Positions 30,804 to 46,682 of a stretch of 64,000 nucleotides of DNA are shown one piece after another. The notes beneath the pieces are model-generated. The model saw nothing but the letters and a program-made list of their open reading frames with translations. It had not been told where the DNA came from and did no database searches. The position numbers were made by a program, and so were the translations under genes. The stretch comes from an uncultured archaeon. Its GTDB lineage: Archaea; Asgardarchaeota; Hermodarchaeia; Hermodarchaeales; Hermodarchaeaceae. The DNA is taken from the NCBI GenBank assembly GCA_964347045.1, contig CAYFXC010000003.1:51669-115668 (forward strand), given 5' to 3'. How positions within the stretch are numbered: the stretch's first letter is position 1; each line of letters starts with the position of its first letter.

Positions 30804-31199
30804 CTACTCTTCAGTTTTTTCCGCCTGCTCTGGCTCCTCTGATACTACGAATAAATGCTCATCATTCAAGGTGAAAGCGGCTAATTCAAACTTACCTGTC
30901 ATGGTTATTGCTTTCTTTGGGCAAACCGCCTCACAGGTTCCACACCAAATACAGCGGTCGAAGCGAAATTGGGGCTTCTTTTTGGTTTTAGTCTTCGTGG
31001 CTTCAACCATTTCGATGGCTGTTGCAGGGCAGTCGCGGCTGCAGAGTCCGCAGCCGGTGCATTTTTCGATATCGTGTTCGATTTTACCGCGGAGGCGTTC
31101 GGGGCGAACGGCTTCTTGAAAAGGATAGCGAATCGTGGCAGTTTTTCGTCTGAGGACGGTGCCAAGAATTTCGCCTTCCATTGCTCCAGGTCGTGGCAT
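30804..31199 (-). CDS. 2x[4Fe-4S] ferredoxin-type subunit of a group-4 hydrogenase / complex-I-like module (MbhN/NuoI-like)
   Basis: It has CTGCGLCSRDCP and CIWCGTCEAVCP, and it lies immediately downstream of the NuoH-like gene. Confidence 0.8.
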   Translation of the reverse strand: MPRPGAMEGEILGTVLRRKTATIRYPFQEAVRPERLRGKIEHDIEKCTGCGLCSRDCPATAIEMVEATKTKTKKKPQFRFDRCIWCGTCEAVCPKKAITMTGKFELAAFTLNDEHLFVVSEEPEQAEKTEE

Positions 31200-31211
31200 T
31201 TTTTTACACTC

Positions 31212-32393
31212 CTAAGGTAAGATGGCGACAATCCAGTCCATGATGAATGGCCAGGCTAAAAGGATGCCGACCATGAGGAGGCTGAAGGGAATAACCCATT
31301 TCCAGCTATCACGGGCGATTTGGTCAATTCGCCATCGAGAGAAGAGGGCTTTCATATTGGATAGGATCAAGACAATGGCGGTGGTTTTGACGATGAACCA
31401 GAAAGCGTAGTAAATGGCTGCAATTGCAGGATTGAGTAATAAGGGCATATTGGTGATAATCCAAGCCATATAATGTCCAGAGTTGATGGTGATCCCATGC
31501 ACGAAACCACCATTGGCAATGAAGATGAAGAAGATTTCTGGTCCAAGAGGGCCTCCCAGGAAAACGGCTGTACCCAATGCGGAGGCGAGGAGAACTTCAA
31601 AGTTATTGGAGAGTCGGAAGAAGGCAAGTTTCTTCCCGGAGAATTCGGTTTCCCAACCGCCAACAATTTCAGTTTCAGCAATGGGTGCATCAAAGGGTAT
31701 GCGTTCGGCTTCTGCTTGTGCAGCGATCAGGAAGACAATGAAGAGTCCAATGAATGCTGGGTTAAAGATTAGGGGTAACCCAAGGTTTGCTTGGTATACG
31801 ACGACGCCTGTAAGGCTCAAACTCCCTGCTACCATTCCCGCCGCAAACAGTGCGAGGAGTAACGGAATTTCATATGCGAGCATCTGGACGATGCCACGTA
31901 CTGCTCCAGTAAAGCCAAACCGGTTTGACGATGACCAGCCGGCGATAAACAGCATTATGGTGAACATAGTGCTGAAGAAGCCGATCATAAGTAAATCGCC
32001 TTCAAAATACATGATGCCCGTTACTGTAAAGAATGGCGTCTGAGAAATCGCTATCGGAACTAGCATAAGCACGGAGATGGGAATTGCCAAAGCTAGAATG
32101 GGGGTCAGCGTAAAGCCGATTTTATCTGCGGCTACTGGGGTTACATCCTCTTTAGCCATCAACTTGACAAAATCTGCGAAGGGTTGAAGGATGCCTCGCC
32201 AGCCTGTATGTAATGGACCGATGCGGTGGTGTTGGTCGGCATAGAATTTGCGGTCAATCCATTCAATATAGAAGGCATATCCTGTTAGGAACAGGAACCC
32301 AGGAAAGATTATAATCATCAGTAGTGTGACGATTGCATTCAATGGTGGGGGTAATAGCACCTGCACATTGCGCACTCTCCAGTGGGTCATCAA
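31212..32393 (-). CDS. Integral membrane subunit MbhM/EchB/NuoH-like
   Basis: It is a polytopic protein with NuoH-type motifs (DRKFYADQHHRIGP.., AEAERIPFD, E..GG..TEFSG). Confidence 0.85.
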   Translation of the reverse strand: MMTHWRVRNVQVLLPPPLNAIVTLLMIIIFPGFLFLTGYAFYIEWIDRKFYADQHHRIGPLHTGWRGILQPFADFVKLMAKEDVTPVAADKIGFTLTPILALAIPISVLMLVPIAISQTPFFTVTGIMYFEGDLLMIGFFSTMFTIMLFIAGWSSSNRFGFTGAVRGIVQMLAYEIPLLLALFAAGMVAGSLSLTGVVVYQANLGLPLIFNPAFIGLFIVFLIAAQAEAERIPFDAPIAETEIVGGWETEFSGKKLAFFRLSNNFEVLLASALGTAVFLGGPLGPEIFFIFIANGGFVHGITINSGHYMAWIITNMPLLLNPAIAAIYYAFWFIVKTTAIVLILSNMKALFSRWRIDQIARDSWKWVIPFSLLMVGILLAWPFIMDWIVAILP

Positions 32394-32584
32394 TATGATT
32401 CGCTTCTGCTAAAAAAGCCTTTTACTACCACAAGATTTTGCAGACACACAAGTTATACGATACTTATAACCAAGAAAATTATAGAATAGTTCAAGCTGTG
32501 GTGAAACAATTGCTCGACTTTCTCCAAGCTGGGCAATGAATGGGTATCCTCTTTGAAAAGCGATAATGGGACGTCGAATAAGAA

Positions 32585-33118
32585 ATGAGTGGTGTTCAAA
32601 ATTCTCGACTTGAAACGCTTCTCCTCATGGGCAGTAAAGCCTTCAAAGCTCAGACTTTACCTGTTGAAATTATCACTCGTCTCAACGCGGCCCTGGATCG
32701 AAATATGAGAATCATTGTTGGTGAAGCGCCTGGTGCAAATCATGTCTTCCAAGACTATTTGGCATCACAAAACTACCGCAACGTACTCGTTGGTCATGCA
32801 CGAAGCATTCGCTACAATGCAGGAAACTGGGAGACTAAACAATATGGCGACAATGTTCGTGAACGGGAAAAAGGAATGATTTCCGAATGCGATGAAGCCA
32901 TCATCATCTGGGTCAACAACAGCAGCGTCATCGCCACCAACCTCGAACGCCTTAAAGAACTCGGCATACCCACCTTTCTCTACGAATATTCTCAATCAAC
33001 ACAAAAAGCCCAAGCAGGTATGCTCGATCCCTCTCGTACCTATGACCCTAACTACCGCCGGTACAAATACTTCAAACGAAAAAATGCAAGCAACTACGAT
33101 ATGCCCCTAAACGGTTAA
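32585..33118 (+). CDS. Hypothetical Rossmann-like protein, possibly of the SLOG superfamily (DUF2493/YpsA-like)
   Basis: It shows a strand-loop pattern: LLLMGSKAF, RIIVGEAPGANHVFQDYL, DEAIIIWV. This resemblance was judged by eye only. Confidence 0.35.
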   Translation: MSGVQNSRLETLLLMGSKAFKAQTLPVEIITRLNAALDRNMRIIVGEAPGANHVFQDYLASQNYRNVLVGHARSIRYNAGNWETKQYGDNVREREKGMISECDEAIIIWVNNSSVIATNLERLKELGIPTFLYEYSQSTQKAQAGMLDPSRTYDPNYRRYKYFKRKNASNYDMPLNG

Positions 33119-33285
33119 TACTGATTTAACTTTCGAGTATTTTCATGGCTTCGTTTGGTCAAAAACGTCTTTTCATGGTAATGTGAAAGTGTGTTGTTCC
33201 ATCCCAACCAAAAGTTACTCTTTTTACCGTAAATACAGTAAAATTTATATTTAATGGAGTAATTTCGCAAAATGGTGAAAGCCAA

Positions 33286-33984
33286 GTGAAACGTTGGCCT
33301 CGAGTAAAAACTGTTGCTATCGCCGCCTTGATATCATTGGCAATTTTTTCTATAACGATTCTCAATTACCCTGAACCGTTGGTCCGTCGATTATCTTGGC
33401 TGACTCATCCAGGTGCCTATGCTATCTATACACGAGGACGGACCTACGAATTGACCAATGGGTCAATCCGTATGGACGTCATTGACGGCACACCAATTAC
33501 CACATCTATCCAAGTTTCAACATGGAACGGTTCACATTGGTGCACTCCAACCATTTTCCATGATCTCCCCATCCATCATTCTACCTCTTTTTGGGTAGCC
33601 AATGATCTTCTTGTCGGTGGTAGGCTCAACAACCTTATCATTAATCACACTTCGGAAATCCTTGAAATATGGCACGATTATGATGAAGCTGACGAAGGCA
33701 ACTCCGGACAATACGTTGTAAGTGTCAAATCCGTCACCCCAGGCCTCAGCCTCTTCGTTGGACGCTTTGCCGTCGAATGCGGATTAGTTACCGGCTGGTA
33801 CTACCCCGAATTCTACCGCCTATACGAAACCAACCTATTCCTCGGCATCTACACCCTCTTTATAGGCTACCCCATCTTCGGAATACTCGTCTTAGCCCCT
33901 GTCATCCTCATGATTACCTCAATCCTTCTCATCTACGAAGGCTTACGCTACCTCCAACACTTACCACGCAAATCCTTGAAATAA
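33286..33984 (+). CDS. Membrane protein with an N-terminal anchor, a beta-rich extracytoplasmic domain and two C-terminal TM helices
   Basis: The call is based on the hydrophobicity pattern. The start codon is GTG. Confidence 0.5.
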   Translation: MKRWPRVKTVAIAALISLAIFSITILNYPEPLVRRLSWLTHPGAYAIYTRGRTYELTNGSIRMDVIDGTPITTSIQVSTWNGSHWCTPTIFHDLPIHHSTSFWVANDLLVGGRLNNLIINHTSEILEIWHDYDEADEGNSGQYVVSVKSVTPGLSLFVGRFAVECGLVTGWYYPEFYRLYETNLFLGIYTLFIGYPIFGILVLAPVILMITSILLIYEGLRYLQHLPRKSLK

Positions 33985-34091
33985 AACTGAATTAAATGAA
34001 CCATCGATGCTAACTCATCAAAAGAAAATCTAATTTTGTAATCACTTGAAAGCGTAGAATCCAAAAACCCTGGAAACCTATAACTTACAGA

Positions 34092-35135
34092 ATGAAATGT
34101 CCACTCAAGGATCAAGGACTTGAACGCGGAGCCTGTCAAACCAGAACCTGTGATGGTCAGTCACAGCCTGCCTGTCAGGTAACCCTTCGAAAAAACAAAA
34201 ACGGAATGTTCGAACGACTTATACGATCTATGCATCTCAGTCGACCGGAAGACTACTTTTCCGTATACCAGAGTGGATGCAATCACACGTGTTTGAAATG
34301 TCATTCGGCGGAGTTCAGTAAAACAGCAAATGGCGAATGGATTTCCACACATGAATTAGCCCTCATTTCAAAAGACTATCGTCAAGAAGTAACTGTTTGG
34401 GAACCTCGAGAACGGGCAACCATGTGGCACGCAGGAACCCTTTGTAAGCATTGTGGATCCTGTCGACTCACCGGTCTTCACTCACCCCAATGCCCACAGA
34501 CACTAGACCCAACGCAAATTACCCGATCTGTCCAAGGCTATGGTCCTGCACGCAATATCATCGCCTTTACTGGGGGCGACTTAGGTTGTCACCCTGAGTA
34601 TTACGCTGAAGCAGCCCACGCCATCAAAACCGCTGCAGGAAACAATATGTGGGTGCTCTTCGAAACTAATGGGTATGCCTTAACACAACCGAATCTACAA
34701 ATTCTCAAGGACGGTGGTGTCGATGCCTTCTGGCTCGACATCAAAGCCCACAATCCCAAGATATACAAAAAACTCTGCGGCACCTCCAATAAAACAGTCT
34801 TAGACTCCATATCGTTGAGCCATGATGCAGGGTTTGTGCTTGAAATCCTCACCCTCTACATCCCCGGATGGGTGGAAACCGACCAACACACCGCCATTGC
34901 CCAACTCATCGCTGAAACTGACCCCACCATTCCTACAACACTCCTCGCCTTCTTTCCAACCTACCACCTTTCCCACGAAAAACCTCCTTCTCTTCAAGAA
35001 ATAGTCCAAAGTGCCCAAGCCATGCAACAACAAGGCCTAACCAACCTACGTCTAGGCAACATCGGCGTTTTTGTCAAAACCCAGTACGACTACGAATTTC
35101 TCACCACAAACTTGACAGACATATCCATCGGGTGA
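34092..35135 (+). CDS. Radical SAM protein (PflA-related, COG2108-like) with extra N-terminal Cys residues
   Basis: It has the CX3CX2C motif CNHTCLKC, a FTGGD motif and WLDIKA. Confidence 0.7.
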   Translation: MKCPLKDQGLERGACQTRTCDGQSQPACQVTLRKNKNGMFERLIRSMHLSRPEDYFSVYQSGCNHTCLKCHSAEFSKTANGEWISTHELALISKDYRQEVTVWEPRERATMWHAGTLCKHCGSCRLTGLHSPQCPQTLDPTQITRSVQGYGPARNIIAFTGGDLGCHPEYYAEAAHAIKTAAGNNMWVLFETNGYALTQPNLQILKDGGVDAFWLDIKAHNPKIYKKLCGTSNKTVLDSISLSHDAGFVLEILTLYIPGWVETDQHTAIAQLIAETDPTIPTTLLAFFPTYHLSHEKPPSLQEIVQSAQAMQQQGLTNLRLGNIGVFVKTQYDYEFLTTNLTDISIG

Positions 35136-35429
35136 AACAAAAAATCTAATCATAGCTATCGGCATACTCGATGTTCACGACCCGATAAGGCCACCAAGCT
35201 ACTACCGACCCCAAGCTTTTCCTCTTTCAACTCTTCACGATTCTGCTCCTGAATCCACGTCCATGGCTTCTTCTCCTCCAATCCATAAAAATACCCAAAG
35301 ATAATTCCGTTCAAACTGAACACGTAGCCTAATTAGCCATCACCATAAACACCCCCATTTTTCTGCCATAACATTTAACAACTGATGCTAATCTGAAACA
35401 TCATCATCACAGATTATTAGGGTAAGTCC

Positions 35430-36701
35430 ATGGTTCACCAAATCTTCAGACGGAATCTCGATAAATGCTGGAATTGTGGGTTTTGTACTGAAACGGTAGA
35501 TTGTCCGAGTCCCCAAGTATGTATTGGATGCCAAGCATGCTACTTGGCATGCTATAGAGAAGCTATCGAACCAATTGAACAAACATTGGACAATGAAATT
35601 ACAATTATGCTGGATGAAAAGCCTGTTACTGTACCAAGCCAAGTCACTATTAAAACGGCTCTTGAAACGCTGGGCATCCGATTTTCCCGGTTTCCTGATT
35701 CACACGACCTATTTACCCCTTGCCAGACTGGTGGGTGTTATTCCTGTTTAGTTTCCGTTGATGGTGAAATTCTTCCCTGCTGTCACACACCAGTAAAATC
35801 GGGTCAACACATTCGAACAAAGATAGCCGACGATTTCGTACCCCGCAGAATTGTTGGATGGTATAGCCCTCACCCAGTTGGCGGGGTTGGAACTCCGTGG
35901 AGTGCGAAAAATCTTGGCAGAACCCGGCACTCATACATTGAAGTAGCTTGTTTCAGCGCAGGGTGCAACCTTAGATGTAAAACTTGTCAGAACTTTGATA
36001 CAACCTATAATAGTCGTGCACCAGCCGTCACGCCCAATGAAGCTGCCGAAATCCTAACGAAACTTCGTCAGAAATCCCATGTCAACCGTCTTGCTATTTC
36101 GGGTGGTGAACCGACCCTCAACCGAAAGTGGCTGATCGAGTTTTTCAAGGAACTCAATCATCTCAACCCAGACCCGAAAGCCCGGTTGCATTTGGACACT
36201 AATGCCTCAATTCTGACTCCCGATTACATTGATGAACTAATATTGGCAGGTATAACTGACATTGGACCTGATCTGAAAGCCGTTCAGGTTGCTACTTACC
36301 AAACAATCACAAATATTTCCGACCCTAATCTAGCCCAAAAATATCTGGATACATCTTGGGCCGCTGTCAAACATCTGGCCAATCATTATTATCCAAATCA
36401 AATCTTCATGGGTGTTGGATTACCTTACAACGCGGCATTCTTTCCCTCTCAACAACAGAAAGAAACCGAACTTCACCAATGGGGAACCCGACTACATGCC
36501 ATTGATGATCGAATCCAAGTTTGCATTCTCGATTACCGTCCAACCTTCCGACGCCGAGATATCCACCGTCCAACAATTGAAGAAATACGAGCTGTCAAGA
36601 AGTTACTCGAAGGAGTAGGACTCCAAACAGTCATCGCCCAAACACAACTCGGTCACCTACCTCCCAAACAACCAGCGCCTGATCGTACACTGCCTCGATA
36701 G
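35430..36701 (+). CDS. Radical SAM protein fused to N-terminal 4Fe-4S ferredoxin-like and NuoG-type 2Fe-2S (Fer2_4-like) domains
   Basis: It has CWNCGFC...CP and CIGCQAC..C. It then has ITIMLDEKPVTVPS...CQTGGCYSCLVSVDGEILPCCH, followed by the radical SAM motif CNLRCKTC and ISGGEPTLN. Confidence 0.75.
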   Translation: MVHQIFRRNLDKCWNCGFCTETVDCPSPQVCIGCQACYLACYREAIEPIEQTLDNEITIMLDEKPVTVPSQVTIKTALETLGIRFSRFPDSHDLFTPCQTGGCYSCLVSVDGEILPCCHTPVKSGQHIRTKIADDFVPRRIVGWYSPHPVGGVGTPWSAKNLGRTRHSYIEVACFSAGCNLRCKTCQNFDTTYNSRAPAVTPNEAAEILTKLRQKSHVNRLAISGGEPTLNRKWLIEFFKELNHLNPDPKARLHLDTNASILTPDYIDELILAGITDIGPDLKAVQVATYQTITNISDPNLAQKYLDTSWAAVKHLANHYYPNQIFMGVGLPYNAAFFPSQQQKETELHQWGTRLHAIDDRIQVCILDYRPTFRRRDIHRPTIEEIRAVKKLLEGVGLQTVIAQTQLGHLPPKQPAPDRTLPR

Positions 36702-36814
36702 GGGCGTTCGAACTCACTGATGCATTCTAGCGAGATGAATGAAATCAGAGGCGCAGATAGACCTCTACCTTTCCAACCATTTAATTAGCTTTTTAGATAA
36801 AAGCGAAAAAAGAA

Positions 36815-37216
36815 CTACTCCTCTTTATCAAAATTGAGGGAGACCGAATTAATACAATAGCGTAACCCCGTCTTTTCTCTCGGGCCATCATCAAACACAT
36901 GTCCAAGATGCCCCCCACAATTCTTACATAGGACTTCTATTCGTCGCATACCATGCGAAAGATCGAGTTTCTCTTCAATTTTGTCTTTATCCAAGGCCTC
37001 ATAGAAGCTCGGCCAACCACAACGCGAATCAAATTTGGCTTCCGATGAAAAGAGTTCCACACCACACCCCGCACACTTGTAAGTACCCTTCTCTTTATAG
37101 TTCCAATACACACCACTAAAAGGTCGTTCTGTGCCCTTCTCGCGCAATACCCGATACTCTTCTTTTGATAATTTCCTCTTCCACTCTTCTTCGGATAACT
37201 CTCTTGCCTTCTTCAT
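36815..37216 (-). CDS. msrB: Peptide-methionine (R)-S-oxide reductase MsrB
   Basis: It has the zinc Cys pairs CAGC and CKNC, GWPSF, HLGHVFDDGP and the catalytic RYCINS. Confidence 0.9.
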   Translation of the reverse strand: MKKARELSEEEWKRKLSKEEYRVLREKGTERPFSGVYWNYKEKGTYKCAGCGVELFSSEAKFDSRCGWPSFYEALDKDKIEEKLDLSHGMRRIEVLCKNCGGHLGHVFDDGPREKTGLRYCINSVSLNFDKEE

Positions 37217-37356
37217 TTCAATCTATTATCTAGCAGCGACAAATCACTAATTGCCTTTCGCAATTACTAGCACCAACTGACTCGGAATCCTTCCTCAGCT
37301 GGTATGATTCAAGGAGATCCGAACTTGATGAGTGGTTCTTCGAAAGCCTAGAAAGA

Positions 37357-37623
37357 ATGAAACTAGAAGTAAGCGAATCTGGCTACGGCAATGTGAAACT
37401 ATCACGACCCTTCGATATTGAATATATACGGCGATTCTTCCAAGACATGGACGTCTATACAGAAGCCAACCTGGCCAGCATCATCGTGAAAAAGAATAGC
37501 AATATCTTCATCTATGCAGAACCAAACGACAGCCAAAGAATCGCCTTCGGCCCAGTCATGGACTATGAGCTCCTCGTCTTAGTCTTCAAATACATACGAC
37601 AGGTCATGACCCGCAACGCATAA
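37357..37623 (+). CDS. Hypothetical small protein
   Basis: This is an 88-aa ORF with no recognisable family. Confidence 0.35.
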   Translation: MKLEVSESGYGNVKLSRPFDIEYIRRFFQDMDVYTEANLASIIVKKNSNIFIYAEPNDSQRIAFGPVMDYELLVLVFKYIRQVMTRNA

Positions 37624-37681
37624 AGCCCAAGAAGATCTAATCCTTCTCTAAGTTCACTTTCAGACATTGGTCAAAGTTCCT

Positions 37682-38647
37682 CTAGGAGAGTTTGGTTTGA
37701 CGTAGTTTTGTTGAAGGTGTTTCACTCAGTTCCTCTTCATTCATGAGATTGCTGATAGAAAGGTTGATGTCATCTACCGCGGTGCGATTGAAGGTGACTA
37801 GGCCGGCTTCCCAGGATTGTCCTCCGGTTGATGTTGGGATGAAATTCATTGATGTGATGAGTGCGATACGTCGATCGATAAGGATAATTTTTGCATGAAC
37901 CCTGTCATTCTTAATCAAATTTACTCCTGCCTTCTGGAGCCGGTTATGGCATTTCATTTTTGCAGTCTTATAAACCTCGACTCGGTCAAGTTCTGGTGGA
38001 CGAGTGATAAGAGTCACGTTTTTACCCTTCTGGGCTGAAAAACGGATTGTATCACTGAGATCACAATCTTGGACAAAAGGATTTACAACAATAACTTCTG
38101 TTTTCGCTAAGTCAATGAGATTTTTAGATAGCTGATCCAGCTTCGACCCTGTCAGGTAAAAATGCTCTGCGTTCATATCGAATTGAAGTTTTAAAAGATG
38201 AATCCACTTCTTGATCCAAGCAATGAGCTCGTCTTGTTGTTCCTCCTTGAAAATGCCTTGAACAGGTTTCTCAATTTCTTCTTGCGGTTCTTCTTCTAAT
38301 GGTTGAGTATGTATCTTCAAGAATTGTTGATATTCCCTATTAAGCTCAGCGCGAAGTGTGTAGGTCTCATTGGGTTGCTTTGTAATCTCTTTGGCATCAG
38401 ACAGCTCTTGCAGGACATCATTAAGGGTTTGACGTGAGAGGCCTGTAATATCGCGAATTGTTCCCCAGGGAAGCGGACCATATTCCGCAAGAACTCTAAT
38501 CACCCATCCCTTCCACGTGCCCCAATAGGTTGGTTTTTCTCCCTCGTGGCTTTTTCCCAGTATGTTTCGCCAGTCCGCAATGATTTTTTCTTTAATCTTC
38601 TTCGCGCCTTCAACAATTTGCTTACGTGGACCCACCATATTCCACAC
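37682..38647 (-). CDS. Winged-helix DNA-binding domain fused to a single-HKD phospholipase-D-family (Nuc-like) nuclease domain
   Basis: It has the wHTH-like WGTIRDITGLSRQTLNDVLQELSDAKEI and the HKD motif HAKIILIDRRIALITSMN (HxKxxxxD...SxN). Confidence 0.65.
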   Translation of the reverse strand: MWNMVGPRKQIVEGAKKIKEKIIADWRNILGKSHEGEKPTYWGTWKGWVIRVLAEYGPLPWGTIRDITGLSRQTLNDVLQELSDAKEITKQPNETYTLRAELNREYQQFLKIHTQPLEEEPQEEIEKPVQGIFKEEQQDELIAWIKKWIHLLKLQFDMNAEHFYLTGSKLDQLSKNLIDLAKTEVIVVNPFVQDCDLSDTIRFSAQKGKNVTLITRPPELDRVEVYKTAKMKCHNRLQKAGVNLIKNDRVHAKIILIDRRIALITSMNFIPTSTGGQSWEAGLVTFNRTAVDDINLSISNLMNEEELSETPSTKLRQTKLS

Positions 38648-38891
38648 ACCTCACATCTAGTACTTTTCTCAACGAAAATACTATAAGAAACTGCTTACAG
38701 CCACTTCACACTCTACTGGTAGTTGAAAAATCATTAGCTCCTCTCCTTTTTTCGATAAAAGTGTGTTAATGCTCCTCTAATTCTGGAAAACCAGCCGTAA
38801 CGCATATAAAATAGTCAAAATACGCGCACCACTCGCACTCCTCTCATCCGAATTTGGCGTCTTAAATACGCCACTAAGAGGTCACCAGTGG

Positions 38892-40862
38892 ATGACCGAT
38901 TCCCAAAATCAACCTCAACATGCTCCGCATCCCCCAACTTCTTTTCTTCCCCGTTCTACACACAGCCCCGAAGCTCAACACCTTCTCAATATCTATGGAT
39001 TCACCGCTTGGAATACTCTCGAACGCGACCTCAACCGCCACCCCTATCTTAGACACCGCACTACCTTCCCCCTAGCCTACACACACGCCCTCTGGCACCG
39101 TATCCTCACTGCTGCTCGTAATGACGGACACCTCACCGACACCACCTACAAATCCCTCGAAACTATCACCGGCATCCCCGCTGGACGACTCCGCGACTGG
39201 CGTCTCGGCGAAAAAGAACCCCACCTCGAACGCACTCTCCAAATCCACGAAACCGCCCGACAATACTGGGAACACACCCTCCCCCAAGAAGCCAAACAAC
39301 ACCTCATTGATCCCTCCCTTGTCTACACCACCTTCCACCCCCTCCTTGACCACACCGAAACACATACTCTCGAAGCCCCTACCACCGGCATCAAAACCCT
39401 CTATCACCACAACAAAAACCAACGCCTCATAATCGCCGAACTCAAACCCTACCACAAAACCGGACCCCAACAACTCCGCACCATCGCCCACGCAATCATT
39501 GAACATCGATCTGAACTCGAACACAAACTCACCAAACGGCTAAATCTCCCCAACACCCACGAAGAACTCCGGATCGCCGTCGACCACGGCACCCTCTACC
39601 TCTGGCGCAAAACCACCCACCCCGACCACTGGCTCAACACCTATAGAAACGAACTCCTCTACCTTACACCCAAAATCAAAGAAGACCTCATCAACAAGGC
39701 ACGACGCCACCTCAACGTCAATACCCAACAACTCGGACAACTCCTCGCCCAACTCACCGACCACAAAGGTGAACGAAGCCACACTCCACGAGCCGCACCC
39801 TACGAACTCACACACTTCAGTCCCAGTCTCCACGGCAACACCCTCCACCTTCTCCTCGACGCAGCCGACCAAACGGTCGATGCAATCAAACCGTATATTA
39901 CCCAAATCGGACGCATCGCCAACCACGAAAAAGGTGGAGGTATCCAAAATCCACGTTTCCCCCAAGGCAGAGAACTCGACATATTACGCGCACGTCTTCT
40001 TGCTATCGGACTCAGCGATTGTCATATCCACAAAGACACTCGTGTAATGTCTTATCATGAAAACGATCTAAATCGCATTAGGTATGTGACTAGTTTATTC
40101 CGAAGACTAGGGGATTGTACTTACAAACTTGAATTCCTCCGGGGAAATCGCACCCGTCTAACCATAACTGCTCCTGTGGGACGGCTTCTCGAATATTGGG
40201 GCGTCCCACGCGGCGATAAGCATCTTTACCCTAATGCTAGATTACCCGAAGTGGTTCGTTTGGGGAAACCCAAAGTGAAGCAAGCCTACCTCGCTGAAGT
40301 AATCCCCGAAGATGGATTTTTTGTCAATCGCGCAGGTGCTTACAAATTTGGGATTAAACGAGCCCAAATTCTCGACGCCGGTTTAAAATCAAAAATTTAT
40401 GGCTATCCTACAAAAATTACTCCGAAACATACAGGTTTGATTAAAAAATATGGAGTAAAGCGAAAACAAGCAATACGGGACAATAGACCACGAAACGAAA
40501 TAACATTGACAAAAGGGAGGTTAAAAGAATTAATCAGAAAAGGAGAAACGCAAAAAGATCAACACATAGCTCAACAATTGGAAGTAATAATCAAGACAAA
40601 TCCTTCTCAGTTACTTAAAGACGAAAAGGAGCTGGCAGAAAGCTTAGGGATCAAGATGCAAATGATTTTCAAAGAACTTAAACTCCAAGAATCTGGGCGA
40701 GTCTCTACCCTCTGGGAAATCTATACCAAATCCTCAACAGACACTCTTCAATGGGCAACCCTTGCAGAACCAAGCTCTGGAGAAAAACAGAGTGCAGTGA
40801 GAGATTGGATTATCAAATACCAAGGAAAGAATTCTATAGATTCTACTAAGGCGGAGCTATAG
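38892..40862 (+). CDS. Large hypothetical protein whose C-terminal half carries two LAGLIDADG-like motifs about 100 aa apart; the N-terminal ~360 aa are H/T/P/L-rich
   Basis: The motifs are LLAIGLSDCH and YLAEVIPEDGFF, spaced as in double-motif LAGLIDADG enzymes. There is a possible HTH (TITGIPAGRLRDW). The nucleotide composition of the 5' 1.1 kb is extreme. Confidence 0.4.
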   Translation: MTDSQNQPQHAPHPPTSFLPRSTHSPEAQHLLNIYGFTAWNTLERDLNRHPYLRHRTTFPLAYTHALWHRILTAARNDGHLTDTTYKSLETITGIPAGRLRDWRLGEKEPHLERTLQIHETARQYWEHTLPQEAKQHLIDPSLVYTTFHPLLDHTETHTLEAPTTGIKTLYHHNKNQRLIIAELKPYHKTGPQQLRTIAHAIIEHRSELEHKLTKRLNLPNTHEELRIAVDHGTLYLWRKTTHPDHWLNTYRNELLYLTPKIKEDLINKARRHLNVNTQQLGQLLAQLTDHKGERSHTPRAAPYELTHFSPSLHGNTLHLLLDAADQTVDAIKPYITQIGRIANHEKGGGIQNPRFPQGRELDILRARLLAIGLSDCHIHKDTRVMSYHENDLNRIRYVTSLFRRLGDCTYKLEFLRGNRTRLTITAPVGRLLEYWGVPRGDKHLYPNARLPEVVRLGKPKVKQAYLAEVIPEDGFFVNRAGAYKFGIKRAQILDAGLKSKIYGYPTKITPKHTGLIKKYGVKRKQAIRDNRPRNEITLTKGRLKELIRKGETQKDQHIAQQLEVIIKTNPSQLLKDEKELAESLGIKMQMIFKELKLQESGRVSTLWEIYTKSSTDTLQWATLAEPSSGEKQSAVRDWIIKYQGKNSIDSTKAEL

Positions 40863-40888
40863 AAAATGCTGAGAGGCAATCAAGGCAA

Positions 40889-42094
40889 TTAACGGCGCCA
40901 AGCTTTGATTCGGTTCCGTTCTTCTCGACTCTTCTCTTGGAACCATGCCCAGGGCTTCTCTTCTTGCTTCCCATCGGGGTATGAAAGTATAATTCGGTCA
41001 GTGCAGGAGAAGCAGGGGTCTATCGAAGCCAGGGCGATGGGGATGTCGGCGATTTTGCCGCCTTTGAGCATTTCGATGACGCTGGGGATGTTGGCGTAGG
41101 TGGGGGCGCGGGCTTTGTGGCGTTCGGGTTTGTCGGTGCCGTTGCTGACGACGTAGTGGAGGACTTCGCCGCGGGGGGCTTCGAAGGTGCTGAGGGCGTG
41201 GCCGGGTGGGATGCGGCGGGGGGTGCGGGTGCTGATGTCGCCTGTGGGGAGGGTGGTGAGCCAGTGGGTGACGGTGGTGCAGGCGTCGAGGGTTTCGAGC
41301 ATGCGGACGACGACGCGGCCGGCGACGTCGCACATGTCGGAGGTGCGGACTTCCCAGGTGGTGCCGAGGGTTTCTTGGTAGGGGGTGCGGGGTTGGGTGG
41401 CGCGGACGTCCCAGTCGATGTTGGAGGCGCGGGCGGTGGGTCCGGTGGCGCAGAGGGCTTTGCCGACGTCGGTTTTGAGGATGCCGACGCCGATGGCGCG
41501 GTCGAGGATCGTTTGTTCGGCTAACACGAGTTTGATGTAGTGGTTGACGCGGTCTTTGATTTTTTCCAGGCGGTCTACCATGCTGGGGATTTGGCTTTTC
41601 TCGATGTCGTGGCGGACGCCGCCGATGATGTTGTTGGCGTAGTTGACGCGGTTCCCACAGATTTCTTCGATCATGTCCATGCTTAATTCGCGGTCCCGCC
41701 AGGAATAATGGAACAGGGTATCCCAGCCGATTTCGTGGCCGGCTATGCCGAGCCAGAGGATGTGGCTGTGGATGCGGTTGAGCTCGTTCATGATGGCACG
41801 AATGTACAAACCCCGTTTGGGAACATCCAAGTCCAGAATCTCTTCGACGGCTTGAACATATGTTGTGGTGTGGGCTTGAGAGCAAATCCCGCAAATGCGT
41901 TCGGCGAGGTAAATGTTTTGGCTAAAACTTCGACTTTCAAAGGCTTTTTCGATGCCGCGATGGACATAGCCGATTCGCGCTTCGACGTCGACAACAATTT
42001 CTCCGTCGACGGTGATGGTGAAGTTTTCCGGCTCCTTGAGTGCGGGGTGTTGGGGACCGATGGGGATGGTCATCGTTGTGGGTGGTTTAGCCAT
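40889..42094 (-). CDS. Group 4 (Mbh/Ech-type) [NiFe]-hydrogenase large subunit, NuoD homologue
   Basis: Both Ni-Fe ligand motifs are retained: RICGICSQAH near the N-terminus and DPCFSCTDR near the C-terminus. A tail of about 34 aa follows the second motif. Confidence 0.9.
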   Translation of the reverse strand: MAKPPTTMTIPIGPQHPALKEPENFTITVDGEIVVDVEARIGYVHRGIEKAFESRSFSQNIYLAERICGICSQAHTTTYVQAVEEILDLDVPKRGLYIRAIMNELNRIHSHILWLGIAGHEIGWDTLFHYSWRDRELSMDMIEEICGNRVNYANNIIGGVRHDIEKSQIPSMVDRLEKIKDRVNHYIKLVLAEQTILDRAIGVGILKTDVGKALCATGPTARASNIDWDVRATQPRTPYQETLGTTWEVRTSDMCDVAGRVVVRMLETLDACTTVTHWLTTLPTGDISTRTPRRIPPGHALSTFEAPRGEVLHYVVSNGTDKPERHKARAPTYANIPSVIEMLKGGKIADIPIALASIDPCFSCTDRIILSYPDGKQEEKPWAWFQEKSREERNRIKAWRR

Positions 42095-42122: not shown

Positions 42123-42333
42123 TGTAGTCACTTCATGCCTTTTTCTTCCTTAAGAAATTAACCGTCAAACAAAGTTATACCCGGCTTTATATACCACGGC
42201 TGGGCTTTGAAGACCATCAACGAGGCCGAAATGATTCCAAACTTTGAGGTTAGATTGCTCTGTAAGAGTGGTTGGATGGGTGTCCCACATTTCTTTGAAT
42301 CGAGAAAAAGCATGGTATTCAAAATGCAAAAGA

Positions 42334-43161
42334 TTAGTTGTTTGGTTTTTTAGATAGGCGTGTGTAGCCGTAGATAATGACTAAGGTGATGCTGTAGATG
42401 GAGTACAGTATAATGATAGCAAGAAAGTACCATTGTAACTGAATGAGACCTAAGATTTCTACGAATAGGGCAAGTGAGAAGTTGAACGAAGCGTGGAAAA
42501 TAATGGCGCCCAATACGCTGCCATTGGTGTTATTTACAATCCATGTGATAATGATGGATATGAACACAATTAATATGATGAAACCTAGAAAATTAAGGAA
42601 ATCAAATTGTCCCTCCTCAAGTCCAAGTAGCAGATAAATGGGTAAATGCCAGAATCCCCAGAATACCCCAAGAATGAGGCTTGACCCTAAGGCGTTAAAC
42701 CGTGATTGCAGGCGTGGTAATGCGAATCCCCGCCAACCCAGTTCTTCTCCAGTAGCACCAATCACCACACTACCAATTAACCAAAACAAACCAATAATCC
42801 CGTCAAAGGGCATATGAGGTCCAGGGATTGGATTGCCAAGACCTATGTATAGCCCTATGGTAAGAAGAGCAATCGCGAAAGGAGAAAAAGCTGCAAGATA
42901 CCAACCAATTCCGATTCTCCATATCCCCATTTTTCCTACTAATTTCCTGATTCCGTTCCATTCTTTCAGAATTAATAATATCACGATGAATGCGGCAATG
43001 CTTGGAGCCCAGGGAGGAAGAAGTTGGAGCACAGGAAGTGGTATTACTACCGCAATACCACTTGCCCCAATAAAAAGTACAAAAGTTAGAACAAAGAACC
43101 ACAAGAGAACAGATCCACTCGAGGATATCCGTGTTTCAGTGGCGGTCGTTTCAAGTGTCAT
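42334..43161 (-). CDS. CPBP-family (CAAX/Abi) intramembrane metalloprotease
   Basis: It has GEELGWRGF, FWGFWHLP and HASFN motifs in a polytopic protein. Confidence 0.85.
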   Translation of the reverse strand: MTLETTATETRISSSGSVLLWFFVLTFVLFIGASGIAVVIPLPVLQLLPPWAPSIAAFIVILLILKEWNGIRKLVGKMGIWRIGIGWYLAAFSPFAIALLTIGLYIGLGNPIPGPHMPFDGIIGLFWLIGSVVIGATGEELGWRGFALPRLQSRFNALGSSLILGVFWGFWHLPIYLLLGLEEGQFDFLNFLGFIILIVFISIIITWIVNNTNGSVLGAIIFHASFNFSLALFVEILGLIQLQWYFLAIIILYSIYSITLVIIYGYTRLSKKPNN

Positions 43162-43539
43162 AATATTTCAAGGCAAAACAATTGAAAGTTATTCAAATAC
43201 CTTCATAAACCGGCTAGTTCAGAATTTTCTATGACAAATCTAACCTTCTTTACAAGTTTTATTACTGTAACCTAGGTGTTGGTCTGAAAAATTTCGAAAC
43301 GATCTATTGTCTGGCTTTTTGGTACCAAGGTAATTTGGATTTGGCCAATGGTTTCCCTAAGAAATTAACTGTCAGACTATGATATACTTGATTATTTTTA
43401 GGGCGCATTCTGGTCATGAAACCCCTAGAACCCTTTCTCGTCTTTCTAAAATTTAGATAACGAGTATTTTACTAGTTCATAGAAAAAAGATTGACAGGTG
43501 CCCCCAAGAGGGGACACCAATGAAGGAAGTTCCCTTAAT

Positions 43540-44285: not shown

Positions 44286-46682
44286 ATGCCTGAATTAACA
44301 CCAAACCAACTTCGCGCCAGATGTAAATCAAAGGACTTTGAATGCAAAACGAGTGCTGAGCTATCTCTCCTAGAAGGGGTCGTGGGTCAACCACGGGCTC
44401 TAAACGCGCTAAAATTTGGTTTAGAGATTCCCGATAAAGGTTTTAACATTTATGTGGCTGGAAGCCCAGGCACAGGTCGACACACGGCGACGAAACGGTA
44501 CCTTGAAGAACTTAAGGCTCAACTGCGTGAAGTCCCTTCAGATTGGTGTTATGTGACCAATTATAAGAATCAGTTCAGACCGAAAGCCTTGGAGTTTCCT
44601 GCCGGAATGGGGAAGGTGTTTGTTGCGAAGATTGATCAATTTATCGAGGCGGCGCGAACATCGATTCAACGAATGTTGGAAAGCGAAGAATACGCTCAGC
44701 AGCGTGAAGAACTTACTCGTTCGTTTGAAACTCAACGAGATGAATTAACTGAAGAGATGCGTGGAAAAGCTCAAGATGCTGGCTTTATGTTGCAAGGAAC
44801 ACAGACGGGATTGCTGATGGTGCCAGTAATTCAAGGAAAACCGATTGGACCTGATATGATTCCTAAGTTGAAGCCCGAAGTTCGGAAGGAAATTGAAGCT
44901 AAACGGAACGCCCTTGAAACTGAGCTTCGTTCGGCTTTTCGAAAATTACGCCAGCTCGAACGAGATTTATTTGAACAGCTTCGTCAAATGGAAGAAAAGG
45001 CTGTGCGCTTTACACTTGAACCATTAATCAACGAAATTGAAGAAGAATTCACTGGCAATGAAAAATCCGTGAGCTGGATTAACGAATTAGCTGATGATAT
45101 GATTGAAAATTTGAATCAATTCATTGGGCGACAACCTCAAGGGATGCCTCCTGAGCTTCTGATGCGCATGCCCTCACCTGAAGATTTTGCCAATCGCTAT
45201 AAAGTCAATCTAATTGTGGATAACTCAGAAATAGAAGGTGCTCCGGTAGTTACTGTAACTAATGCTGCGTATAATCGTCTCTTTGGGTTAATTGAAAAAG
45301 AGCCCCGATTTGGTGCGTTGGTAACAGATACTACTATGATTCGTGGAGGTTATTTACATCAGGCAAATGGTGGTTATATTGTAATTCCGGTTCGTGAACT
45401 TCTAATGGCACCTGCATCATATCAGGCATTGAAACGGGCTTTACAAAATGATCAGATTGTCATTGAGGAAGCCTCAGAAGCAATGGGGTTTCTTACTGTG
45501 AAAACATTACATCCTGAGCCAATACCACTGAAAATAAAGGTAGTTTTGATTGGTGAGCCACTGTGGTATCAGCAATTGTATCAGTTAGATCCTGATTTTC
45601 GTGAATTGTTCAAAGTTAAAGCAGATTTTGATACATCCATGGAACGCAATGAACAAACTGTCAAAATCTATGGAGACTTTGTTTGTACACTCACTGAAAA
45701 AGAAAATCTTTTGTCGCTTGATGCTGAAGCGATTGCGGAAGTAGTCGATTTCAGTTCAAGACTAGCGGATGATCAAAATAAACTGTCAACCCGTTTTGAT
45801 ATTGTCGCAGACATTATCCGCGAAGCAAACTTCTATGCAAAGAAATCTGGGAAAAATACAATTGGTTTATCGTATATCAAAAAGACCGTGGATGAACGGT
45901 TCTTCCGCTCGAGTTTGTATGCTGAGAAAGTTCGTGAATATATCAAGAAAGGTGTCATTTTAATAGACACAAAGGGTGAAAAAGTCGGGCAAATCAATGG
46001 CTTGTCCGTGCTTTCTCTAGGAGATTTTAGTTTTGGGCAACCTTCGCGTATCACTGCTACAGTCGCACCGGGGCGGGGACAAGTCATAGATATTGAACGT
46101 GAAGCACAACTCAGTGGACCAATCCAAATTAAAGGGGTGCAAATCCTCACAGGATTTCTTCATGAAGTATTTGGCCAAGACAAACCCTTGAGCCTTTTAG
46201 CTCGTATTACCTTCGAACAAAGTTATGGTGGAGTTGATGGTGACAGTGCAAGTAGCACTGAGTTATATGCCATGCTCTCGGCGTTATCCGATGTTCCGAT
46301 TCAACAACGATTTGCTGTCACGGGTTCAGTCAACCAACATGGACACGTCCAAGCAATCGGTGGAGTAAATCAGAAAATTGAGGGCTATTTTGCTGTTTGT
46401 AAGGAAATGGGCTTAACTGGTGACCAAGGAGTGTTGGTTCCTGAATCAAACGTACAAAATCTCATGTTGAAAGATGAAGTGATTGAGGCTGTACAAGCTG
46501 CTAAGTTTCACATCTACTCGGTGAGAACCATCGAGGAAGGAATTGAATTGCTCACAGGTGTTCCTGCGGGTAAAACGCAAGCAGATGGAGCCTATCCTGA
46601 GAATTCGATATTCGGGCGTGTCGATAAACGGTTACAGGAAATGGCCAATATCATGCGAGAACATAATCGTCCCGCTAACTAA
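44286..46682 (+). CDS. Lon-related protease (COG1067 / LonC-like) with degenerate AAA motifs
   Basis: The C-terminal S16 domain has the Ser context GDSASS and the Lys context GGVNQKIEG. The Walker A-like motif GSPGTGRHT has Arg in place of Lys. The Walker B position reads IVIPVRE. There is a long helical insertion. Confidence 0.8.
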   Translation: MPELTPNQLRARCKSKDFECKTSAELSLLEGVVGQPRALNALKFGLEIPDKGFNIYVAGSPGTGRHTATKRYLEELKAQLREVPSDWCYVTNYKNQFRPKALEFPAGMGKVFVAKIDQFIEAARTSIQRMLESEEYAQQREELTRSFETQRDELTEEMRGKAQDAGFMLQGTQTGLLMVPVIQGKPIGPDMIPKLKPEVRKEIEAKRNALETELRSAFRKLRQLERDLFEQLRQMEEKAVRFTLEPLINEIEEEFTGNEKSVSWINELADDMIENLNQFIGRQPQGMPPELLMRMPSPEDFANRYKVNLIVDNSEIEGAPVVTVTNAAYNRLFGLIEKEPRFGALVTDTTMIRGGYLHQANGGYIVIPVRELLMAPASYQALKRALQNDQIVIEEASEAMGFLTVKTLHPEPIPLKIKVVLIGEPLWYQQLYQLDPDFRELFKVKADFDTSMERNEQTVKIYGDFVCTLTEKENLLSLDAEAIAEVVDFSSRLADDQNKLSTRFDIVADIIREANFYAKKSGKNTIGLSYIKKTVDERFFRSSLYAEKVREYIKKGVILIDTKGEKVGQINGLSVLSLGDFSFGQPSRITATVAPGRGQVIDIEREAQLSGPIQIKGVQILTGFLHEVFGQDKPLSLLARITFEQSYGGVDGDSASSTELYAMLSALSDVPIQQRFAVTGSVNQHGHVQAIGGVNQKIEGYFAVCKEMGLTGDQGVLVPESNVQNLMLKDEVIEAVQAAKFHIYSVRTIEEGIELLTGVPAGKTQADGAYPENSIFGRVDKRLQEMANIMREHNRPAN

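Follow-up and report, generated by a model that had tools for sequence, protein, structure and literature searches.

A predicted LAGLIDADG homing-endonuclease gene at the 3' end of a [NiFe]-hydrogenase gene, and a variable island of relic gene ends, in Hermodarchaeum

In a 64,000-nucleotide stretch (the window) of the genome of a Hermodarchaeum, an Asgard archaeon, the gene for the large subunit (LSU) of a [NiFe] hydrogenase is separated by several kilobases from the NuoH- and NuoI-like genes that follow it on the same strand. What drove these genes apart? The original prediction offered two answers, disruption of an operon by an inserted island or a hydrogenase whose genes are dispersed in this lineage, and both were borne out. 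In our judgement, the interval between LSU and NuoH is probably a hot spot driven by a 656-aa open reading frame (ORF) acting as a homing-endonuclease gene that inserts at the 3' end of LSU. The anatomy of the locus, its synteny, a presence/absence pattern that includes a decayed copy, the relics of LSU ends, the fold of the protein, and the same arrangement at other genes were all observed and are described below. G-numbers denote the genomes compared (G000 is this genome, with the window on its contig C3), and L-numbers denote individual loci. The features that carry the argument are the following:

30804..31199, minus strand: NuoI/MbhN-like 2x[4Fe-4S] subunit (library scans and synteny).
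31212..32393, minus strand: NuoH/MbhM-like membrane subunit of the same complex as LSU (PF00146).
35203..35313, minus strand, as LSU: non-coding relic copy of the LSU 3' end (IIFGYFYGLEEKKPWTWIQEQNREE...; nhmmer E 1.8e-14).
38892..40862, plus strand: free-standing 656-aa gene for a candidate LAGLIDADG-type homing endonuclease, convergent with LSU (stop-to-stop distance 26 nt).
40889..42094, minus strand: intact LSU, NuoD-like, group 4, complex-I-like type (401 aa; PF00346, Complex1_49kDa, and PF00374, NiFeSe_Hases).
40890..41016, minus strand: functional LSU 3' end (second Cys of DPCFSC, TDR, 34-aa extension, stop), the unit that is repeated as relics (nhmmer, 129-column tail model).

The coordinates and domains predicted for the LSU, NuoH-like and NuoI-like genes were confirmed, with a gap of 8.5 kb between LSU and NuoH. 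LSU was also intact as claimed, with the Ni-Fe motif RICGICS close to the N-terminus and DPCFSCTDR followed by a C-terminal extension of 34 aa; its identity within the genus is 81-87%. In [NiFe] hydrogenases, the C-terminal extension is removed by a maturation protease. The short distance between the stop codons of LSU and of the 656-aa ORF had been noted from the sequence, as had the LAGLIDADG-like character of the latter, which was upheld by the predicted fold.

The AlphaFold2 model of the 656-aa protein (pLDDT 82.7) gave as top Foldseek matches I-Tsp061I, PI-SceI, the TliVMA intein endonuclease and I-DmoI (probability 1.0; E 1.6e-5 to 1e-3 against archaeal LAGLIDADG enzymes), with WhiA also present. 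Two LAGLIDADG domains (each with an alpha-beta-beta-alpha-beta-beta-alpha fold) occupy the C-terminal ~290 aa, and two LAGLIDADG-like motifs are conserved in the family alignment, ARLIAIALSDGHIH and AYLAEVIPEDGYF. With the register set by eye, all 19 family members have D376, and either D or E at position 474. The N-terminal 334 aa are modelled with confidence (pLDDT 87) and have no structural match in the PDB (best E 0.58). Searches with NCBIfam and PADLOC returned no match to the protein, and a profile search of PDB sequences with the family yielded nothing relevant. Its 22 homologues in a large protein collection belong, wherever an organism name is given, to Asgard archaea (Hod-, Prometh-, Hermod- and Thorarchaeota), and none of the 22 carries a precomputed Pfam domain. 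From the fold and the two acidic residues, we infer that this LAGLIDADG-type protein is an active nuclease; its gene may still be mobile.

The gene is invariably convergent with LSU, at a distance of 0-92 nt from the LSU stop codon. It occupies this site in the genome studied here and in G003, G006, G011, G012 and G013, and is absent from it in G002 and G008. In G001, a frameshifted remnant (the last ~75 codons) lies 10 nt past a relic of the LSU end, which is the position expected of the endonuclease gene when that relic was still the working tail. No second copy of the gene was found in this genome.

Comparison within the genus showed that the interval next to the endonuclease gene is a variable island between conserved flanks. 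On one side are a P-type ATPase, LonB, sometimes a CPBP gene, and LSU; on the other side NuoH-NuoI-GDPD-M42-TBP-CDC48. The TBP, CDC48 and LonB genes show that the host is an archaeon. What lies between differs from genome to genome throughout the genus, so that the same set of intervening genes, which would have spoken for a fixed arrangement, is not shared. In more distant genomes of the phylum, LSU, NuoH and NuoI are adjacent, which we take to be the ancestral order. The length of the LSU-to-NuoH gap varied as follows:

G002: about 2.4 kb (LSU, ~100 nt, msrB, one gene, NuoH).
G006 and G003: 6-7 kb.
This window: 8.5 kb.
G012: 14.6 kb.
G008: 23 kb.
G013: more than 20 kb.

The G006 arrangement is that of G002 with 4.0 kb inserted after the LSU stop codon and before msrB; the inserted DNA comprises the endonuclease gene and three small ORFs. 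The msrB gene itself lies between LSU and NuoH in G001, G002, G003, G006, G011, G012, G013 and G014, at 82-88% identity. Since it was found in the interval of every genus member examined, it is a resident gene and not an insert. Thus, the original view of the gap genes as an insert was right for the variable cargo and wrong for msrB. This is a draft metagenome-assembled genome (83 contigs, 89% complete), and an assembly or binning artefact might in principle have produced the split. We consider this extremely improbable, because the window lies within a single 180-kb contig and the same flanks and island type are seen again in more than eight genomes that were assembled independently.

The trace of earlier events in the island came from LSU itself. 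When LSU was searched for in the relatives, many extra short matches to residues ~355-401 appeared past the 3' end of the complete gene. In this genome, a tblastn search of all contigs with the last 79 LSU residues gave one extra copy (window 35231-35305, minus strand, E 7e-5). It sits between two radical-SAM genes, is the only repeat of the LSU 3' end in the window, and aligns at the DNA level with LSU from the R-I-I codons to the former stop codon. We searched the islands with nhmmer, using a 129-column DNA model made from tails and relics, and found 0-4 relics per island, every one co-oriented with LSU. There were 21 relics in eight genomes, many with stop codons. The mean identity of these 21 to the LSU consensus was at background upstream of about -125 nt, lay at 0.6-0.77 between about -115 nt and the stop codon, and dropped to 0.3 right past it. 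Because of these sharp bounds, the repeated unit can be defined: it begins at the second Cys of the CxxC motif, takes in the C-terminal extension and ends with the stop codon. This ~120-nt stretch essentially encodes the peptide that is cut off by the maturation protease.

In G003, G011 and G012, a short relic lies 20-230 nt beyond the start of the endonuclease gene. From the relic onward, the G011 locus is homologous to the tail-to-msrB region of the unoccupied G002 allele, homology resuming at the W-A-W-F-Q codons. The native tail-to-msrB context thus continues from the relic rather than from the functional tail.

These data are most readily put together as follows. The enzyme would cut an unoccupied LSU gene within the codons for the DPCxxCxxR end and the C-terminal extension, a part of the protein that tolerates change because the peptide is removed by the maturation protease. 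Repair off an occupied allele would install a replacement 3' end together with the endonuclease gene, and the displaced 3' end would be stranded downstream as a non-coding relic. Repeated invasion, with decay of the endonuclease gene in between, would lead to a stack of ~120-nt relics in one orientation, and unrelated cargo genes would now fill the former endonuclease slots between them. Recombination between the repeats may further shuffle or delete slots; in G003, for example, the order of the flavodoxin and 136-aa cassettes is the reverse of that in G008. If this model holds, targeting the piece that a [NiFe] hydrogenase loses on maturation looks like a neat selfish strategy.

Replacement of tails is also hinted at by the sequences of the tails themselves. 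G006 (L042/L063) and G012 (L053/L060) have in common the tail type IIL[VI]DEKGN.EVKPW.WFQKVSRETREKEK.WRR, their tails being 88% and their cores 84% identical. The nearest LSU core to that of G006 is the one of G002 (94%), yet the tails of these two differ (71%). LSU tails evolve faster than the core, and this hint comes from 34 residues only, too few for a test. Co-transfer of tail and endonuclease gene between G006 and G012 was considered and is not supported, the two endonucleases being 60% identical, no closer than average.

Further evidence for such a process was obtained by looking at relatives of the 656-aa protein next to other genes. In a scan of one genome per prokaryote species, 25 loci with relatives were found, all named hosts being Hermod- or Thorarchaeota. 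At those with an assigned target, the target genes were as follows:

Group 4 LSU: L059, L061, L062, L063 and L068.
Group-3-type [NiFe] LSU (...DPCLSCAVH/AVNG...): L057, L058, L064 and L070.
FAD-linked oxidase: L069.
MTHFR: L081; L066 has the same neighbour.

Relatives with 36-43% identity, from Hermod- and Thorarchaeota, are convergent against the stop codon of group-3 LSU, FAD-oxidase and MTHFR genes. Beyond the endonuclease gene there are relics of the C-terminus of the respective target gene, often several in a row with genes between them. A duplicate of the target's 3' end on the far side of the endonuclease gene was found at L057, L058, L064, L069 and L081, for instance with 57% identity over 42 aa (L069) or 69% over 74 aa (L081). 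In L081, the copy of the relative is only a 177-residue remnant. No relic was detected at L066 (38% identical, MTHFR neighbour), and no clear target was seen for the distant Thorarchaeota members (26-30% identity). The coordinates concerned at these three loci are the following:

L081: 5332-5553 and 6608-7543.
L066: 6596-7711.
L069: 1165-1290 and 3431-5110.

That one pattern recurs with four kinds of target gene speaks against a helper protein dedicated to the hydrogenase and fits a mobile, end-replacing family. This bears on a different explanation, namely that the 656-aa protein is a domesticated LAGLIDADG protein (a WhiA-like regulator or a maturation helper) and that the relics arose from unrelated recombination at a fragile 3' end. 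In favour of domestication, WhiA was among the structural matches, the protein has a large extra N-terminal domain without known fold, it is associated with two classes of [NiFe] LSU, and its divergence follows that of the hosts. WhiA has lost the catalytic residues, however, whereas both catalytic acidic positions are conserved across the present family. The gene is moreover absent from the site in G002 and G008 and decayed in G001, and the relatives next to MTHFR and FAD-oxidase genes, where relics of the respective target are found, point to a selfish element and not to a hydrogenase partner. We therefore regard domestication as unlikely.

Many archaeal and bacterial elements integrate at the ends of tRNA genes. 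One could similarly suppose that integrase-mediated elements used the LSU 3' end as an attachment site and brought a replacement end with them, tandem integrations displacing the older ends. Serial site-specific integration would indeed be expected to leave co-oriented, sharply bounded ~120-nt repeats after each gene block, and the cargo is diverse and unlike between genomes. In related islands it comprises a flavodoxin-like protein (recognized by eye), CorA, a proteasome-alpha-like protein, F420-dependent and luciferase-like oxidoreductases, a TPR-nitrilase and membrane proteins. Yet a domain of a tyrosine or serine recombinase, a transposase or any other integrase was detected neither in the island ORFs of the window nor in 10 larger cargo proteins of related islands, the remaining cargo being read by eye only. 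The sole gene that recurs beside the site is the LAGLIDADG gene, whose relatives show relics at four target genes, and the slots, of 0.5-3 kb, are too small for self-sufficient elements. The interval contains no tRNA gene and no Rfam match. For these reasons, integrase-driven insertion seems to us improbable. Target-site duplications, which the original prediction suggested looking for at 32.4-32.6 kb and 40.86-40.89 kb, were not found there by blastn-short, a repeat search or nhmmer.

Several observations weigh against insertion by a homing endonuclease as we propose it. The 656-aa protein has no Pfam match, LAGLIDADG_1/2/3 included, even at E <= 10. In the window, the 244-nt spacer beside the endonuclease gene contains no relic, and the sole relic is 3.6 kb from the endonuclease start, past the PLD gene, msrB and a radical-SAM gene. 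G006 carries the endonuclease gene and has no relic detectable with the nhmmer tail model. Where relics do adjoin the endonuclease gene, they are short and start at the W-A-W-F-Q codons, while most others begin at the CxxC codons; there may accordingly be more than one insertion point or agent. The endonucleases are 59-68% identical, compared with 82-94% for the LSU cores, and their divergence scales roughly with that of the hosts (81% versus 94% for the closest pair; ~62% versus ~84%). This ratio fits long vertical residence with losses no less than it fits recent mobility. Finally, standard homing copies an existing arrangement and does not by itself explain the origin of new duplications or the entry of cargo.

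An extension of the homing-endonuclease model, which we put forward tentatively and consider rather doubtful, is the following. Every slot has a tail copy on one side, and on the other either the LSU body or a further tail copy. The relic stack might on this basis serve as a gene-capture platform seeded by homing endonucleases, in which genes in the slots would gain portable homology arms and be copied between Hermod- and Thorarchaeota genomes. Copying of slots would then proceed by endonuclease-stimulated or ordinary homologous recombination, and the island would amount to an integron-like, integrase-free cassette system that uses the disposable, protease-removed peptide of an essential metalloenzyme. 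More generally, relic arrays with cargo suggest one route by which such elements seed variable genomic islands.

The closest described system is that of the mobile endonuclease ORFs (mORFs) of fungal mitochondria, which form gene hybrids in Glomus atp6, atp9, cox2 and nad3 (PMC3630166). Allomyces macrogynus atp6 is given as an mORF case in the same article. As in our locus, a LAGLIDADG (or GIY-YIG) ORF stands at the 3' end of a host gene, a replacement C-terminal piece is provided, and the native C-terminus is stranded downstream untranslated (PMC3630166). The differences are that the host is an archaeal chromosome instead of a mitochondrial genome, that the endonuclease gene is separate and convergent whereas the mORF is fused in frame, and that the protein is three times larger, with an N-terminal domain of ~330 aa that has no Pfam match. 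Our locus also stands apart in its target, namely the extension that is proteolytically removed from a [NiFe] hydrogenase, and in its multi-relic arrays with unrelated cargo. With the archaeal intron and intein LAGLIDADG enzymes (I-Tsp061I, I-DmoI, PI-PfuI, TliVMA), the 656-aa protein shares the double-LAGLIDADG fold and an acidic residue ending each motif; it differs from them in being encoded by a free-standing gene, in its extra N-terminal domain, and in a similarity that is below detection by Pfam or PDB profiles.

Two other systems invite comparison. In Rhs/CdiA polymorphic-toxin loci, new 3' ends displace old ones and orphan C-terminal modules pile up downstream; integrons are cassette arrays in which a repeated element in a single orientation separates the cassettes. 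Both are analogies only, since no toxin/immunity pairs, integron integrase or attC-like structure were found in our locus, where the repeat is a piece of coding sequence. None of the papers listed in our search on LAGLIDADG, hydrogenases and Asgard archaea made mention of LAGLIDADG. The hydrogenase itself is of a known kind; the interest lies in the endonuclease family and in the island of relics and cassettes that it seems to have produced. An unannotated family (no Pfam match, about 25 loci) would thereby join the homing endonucleases, and a lifestyle of replacing gene ends and stranding the old ones, known mainly from fungal mitochondria, would extend to archaeal chromosomes.

If the island accounts for the distance between LSU and NuoH, where are the other subunits? 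As predicted, no NuoB or NuoC gene was found near LSU, or anywhere in the window, a CPBP/Rce1-like gene being upstream of LSU instead. A search of the whole genome located both on contig C4. The genome has three sets of NuoB, NuoC, NuoD-like and NuoH genes, plus one group-3-type small subunit. Two of the sets are complete nuo-like clusters (on C5 and across C52/C2) whose D subunits are without the Ni-Fe cysteines, these being retained solely in the D-type subunit of the window. Contig C4 carries NuoA, NuoB (with four Cys) and NuoC and, divergently, NuoJ, NuoK and three antiporter-like genes; D, H and I are absent from it, and the window on C3 supplies exactly D (LSU), H and I. A hypD gene lies 3 kb from the C4 cluster, and hypA, hypC and a hycI-type protease gene, which the original prediction had suggested searching for, are elsewhere in the genome. 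With both CxxC motifs and a C-terminal extension in LSU, with the HycI-type protease and HypA, HypC and HypD, and with a complete set of NuoB-, C-, H- and I-like and antiporter-like membrane subunits, this is a group 4 hydrogenase, but one encoded across two loci. The window's hydrogenase genes encode three of the 11 subunits of a complex-I-like group-4 [NiFe] hydrogenase in this Hermodarchaeum. One feature of the C4 cluster deserves mention: in the nuoN-like antiporter gene (C4 about 129590-129620; L089 ~1590-1620), a run of N splits the sequence into two ORFs (290 and 300 aa), probably on account of a gap in the scaffold and not because the gene is broken.

We infer the pairing of the C3 and C4 loci from the synteny of outgroups. 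In G025, G035, G029 and G039, which belong to other families of the phylum, A, B, C and LSU are contiguous; in G025 and G035, H and I come directly after LSU, and in G035 the J-to-N genes are divergent and upstream. The NuoB of these four outgroups is 64-70% identical to the C4 copy, compared with 39-47% for the two other copies. Similarly, the NuoH of the window is 44% identical to outgroup NuoH, which the NuoH paralogues of this genome match at 32-36%. Because of this difference and of the contiguity in the outgroups, H and I can be assigned to the complex of this LSU; descent from a different complex had been named as an outcome that would undo the idea of a split module.

When 40 relatives were surveyed, C4-type NuoB and LSU were on separate contigs in all 14 genomes of the genus and all 4 of the sister genus, while C4-type NuoB adjoined LSU in 10 outgroup genomes of other families. 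The separation of B and C from LSU in 18/18 genomes of the family that were searched indicates a stable, family-wide dispersed hydrogenase. The ancestral cluster would have been nuoJKLMN <-> nuoA-B-C-LSU-H-I. In a first break, LSU-H-I would have parted from A-B-C and J-N, a state that is stable through the family. In a second, within the genus, the hot spot directly past the LSU stop codon would have driven H-I off by 2.4 kb to at least 23 kb.

The family-wide separation, together with the constant presence of msrB between LSU and H, could suggest that nothing is mobile at all and that the hydrogenase genes simply have a stable ancestral dispersed organization. As a general explanation this is very unlikely. 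The distance from LSU to H (2.4 kb to at least 23 kb) and the content vary, and there are pseudogenised LSU ends inside. The explanation is refuted for the LSU-to-H gap and holds only for the separation of B and C from LSU. A LonB-like gene (window 44286-46682) divergently adjoins LSU in most genomes of the genus and sister genus; the LonB side is the neighbourhood gained by LSU-H-I on leaving the nuoA-B-C cluster.

The label Mbh-type, given originally, was right for the L-M-N order and imprecise otherwise: since the partners are NuoA, J and K and three antiporter-like proteins (NuoL/M/N-like), we call the complex complex-I-like and not strictly Mbh-type. Like the Mbh of Thermococcales (mbhA-N), it probably carries out ferredoxin-dependent proton reduction. 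It differs from Mbh in having NuoA, J, K and three Proton_antipo_M subunits and not the Mrp-type MbhA-I, and in having the equivalents of J and K (NuoB and NuoC) on another contig and not upstream of L. Asgard complex-I-like group 4 [NiFe] hydrogenases have been described as subgroups 4j-q (bioRxiv 10.1101/2024.07.04.601786). The present complex resembles them in its NuoD-like LSU with both CxxC motifs and in its NuoA/B/C/H/I/J/K and antiporter-like partners without NuoEFG (bioRxiv 10.1101/2024.07.04.601786), and differs from them in that its genes occupy at least two loci, with a variable island between LSU and H-I. A broken-looking Asgard energy-metabolism operon is thereby explained, the catalytic subunit being intact and its partners encoded elsewhere in the genome, and this matters for metabolic reconstructions that score hydrogenases on operon context.

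The other genes of the island, and the gene upstream of LSU, are the following; whether cargo is unique to this genome was judged against nine related islands:

32585..33984, plus strand: two ORFs without family match, of 177 aa (also in G012) and 232 aa (unique).
34092..35135, plus strand: radical-SAM protein, glycyl-radical-activase-like, cargo in common with G012 (82% identical copy).
35430..36701, plus strand: radical-SAM protein with an N-terminal NuoG-like 2Fe-2S (Fer2_4) domain, unique to this genome among the islands compared.
36815..37216, minus strand: msrB, resident of the LSU-to-NuoH interval (PF01641).
37357..37623, plus strand: 88-aa ORF from the ORF list, with no assigned function, which may not be a gene.
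37682..38647, minus strand: PLD-domain protein (single HKD; PF13091), cargo found in this genome only among those compared.
42334..43161, minus strand: CPBP/Rce1-like protease gene upstream of LSU, variable.

The SLOG-like and wHTH labels originally given to two of the gap genes were not confirmed, no family matches being found. The PLD protein, which has a homologue in 0/9 related islands, gave weak DrmC/NucT-like matches under the curated cut-offs, and the Fer2_4 radical-SAM protein gave weak viperin-like matches far under any cut-off. A reading of the PLD and radical-SAM cargo as a defence system was dropped, the DrmC- and viperin-like matches being weak and sub-threshold.

LSU and the 656-aa ORF share an unusual codon composition. 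Third codon positions are nearly all C at window 41040-41790 (LSU codons ~100-350) and 38892-39940 (codons ~1-350 of the 656-aa ORF). In LSU, T is absent from the third position through 200 consecutive codons, with for example 44 C, 0 T, 3 A and 3 G per 50 codons, as compared with the usual counts of ~10 C and 16 T in eleven neighbouring genes. The skew tracks the coding strand of each gene and is weaker in G002, which is free of the endonuclease gene.

The CPBP gene sits between LonB and LSU in this genome, G001 and G008 only. A 35-nt direct repeat (83% identical) is present at window 42146-42180 and 43353-43387, upstream of LSU and of the CPBP gene, and may be a piece of promoter that was duplicated on insertion of the CPBP gene.

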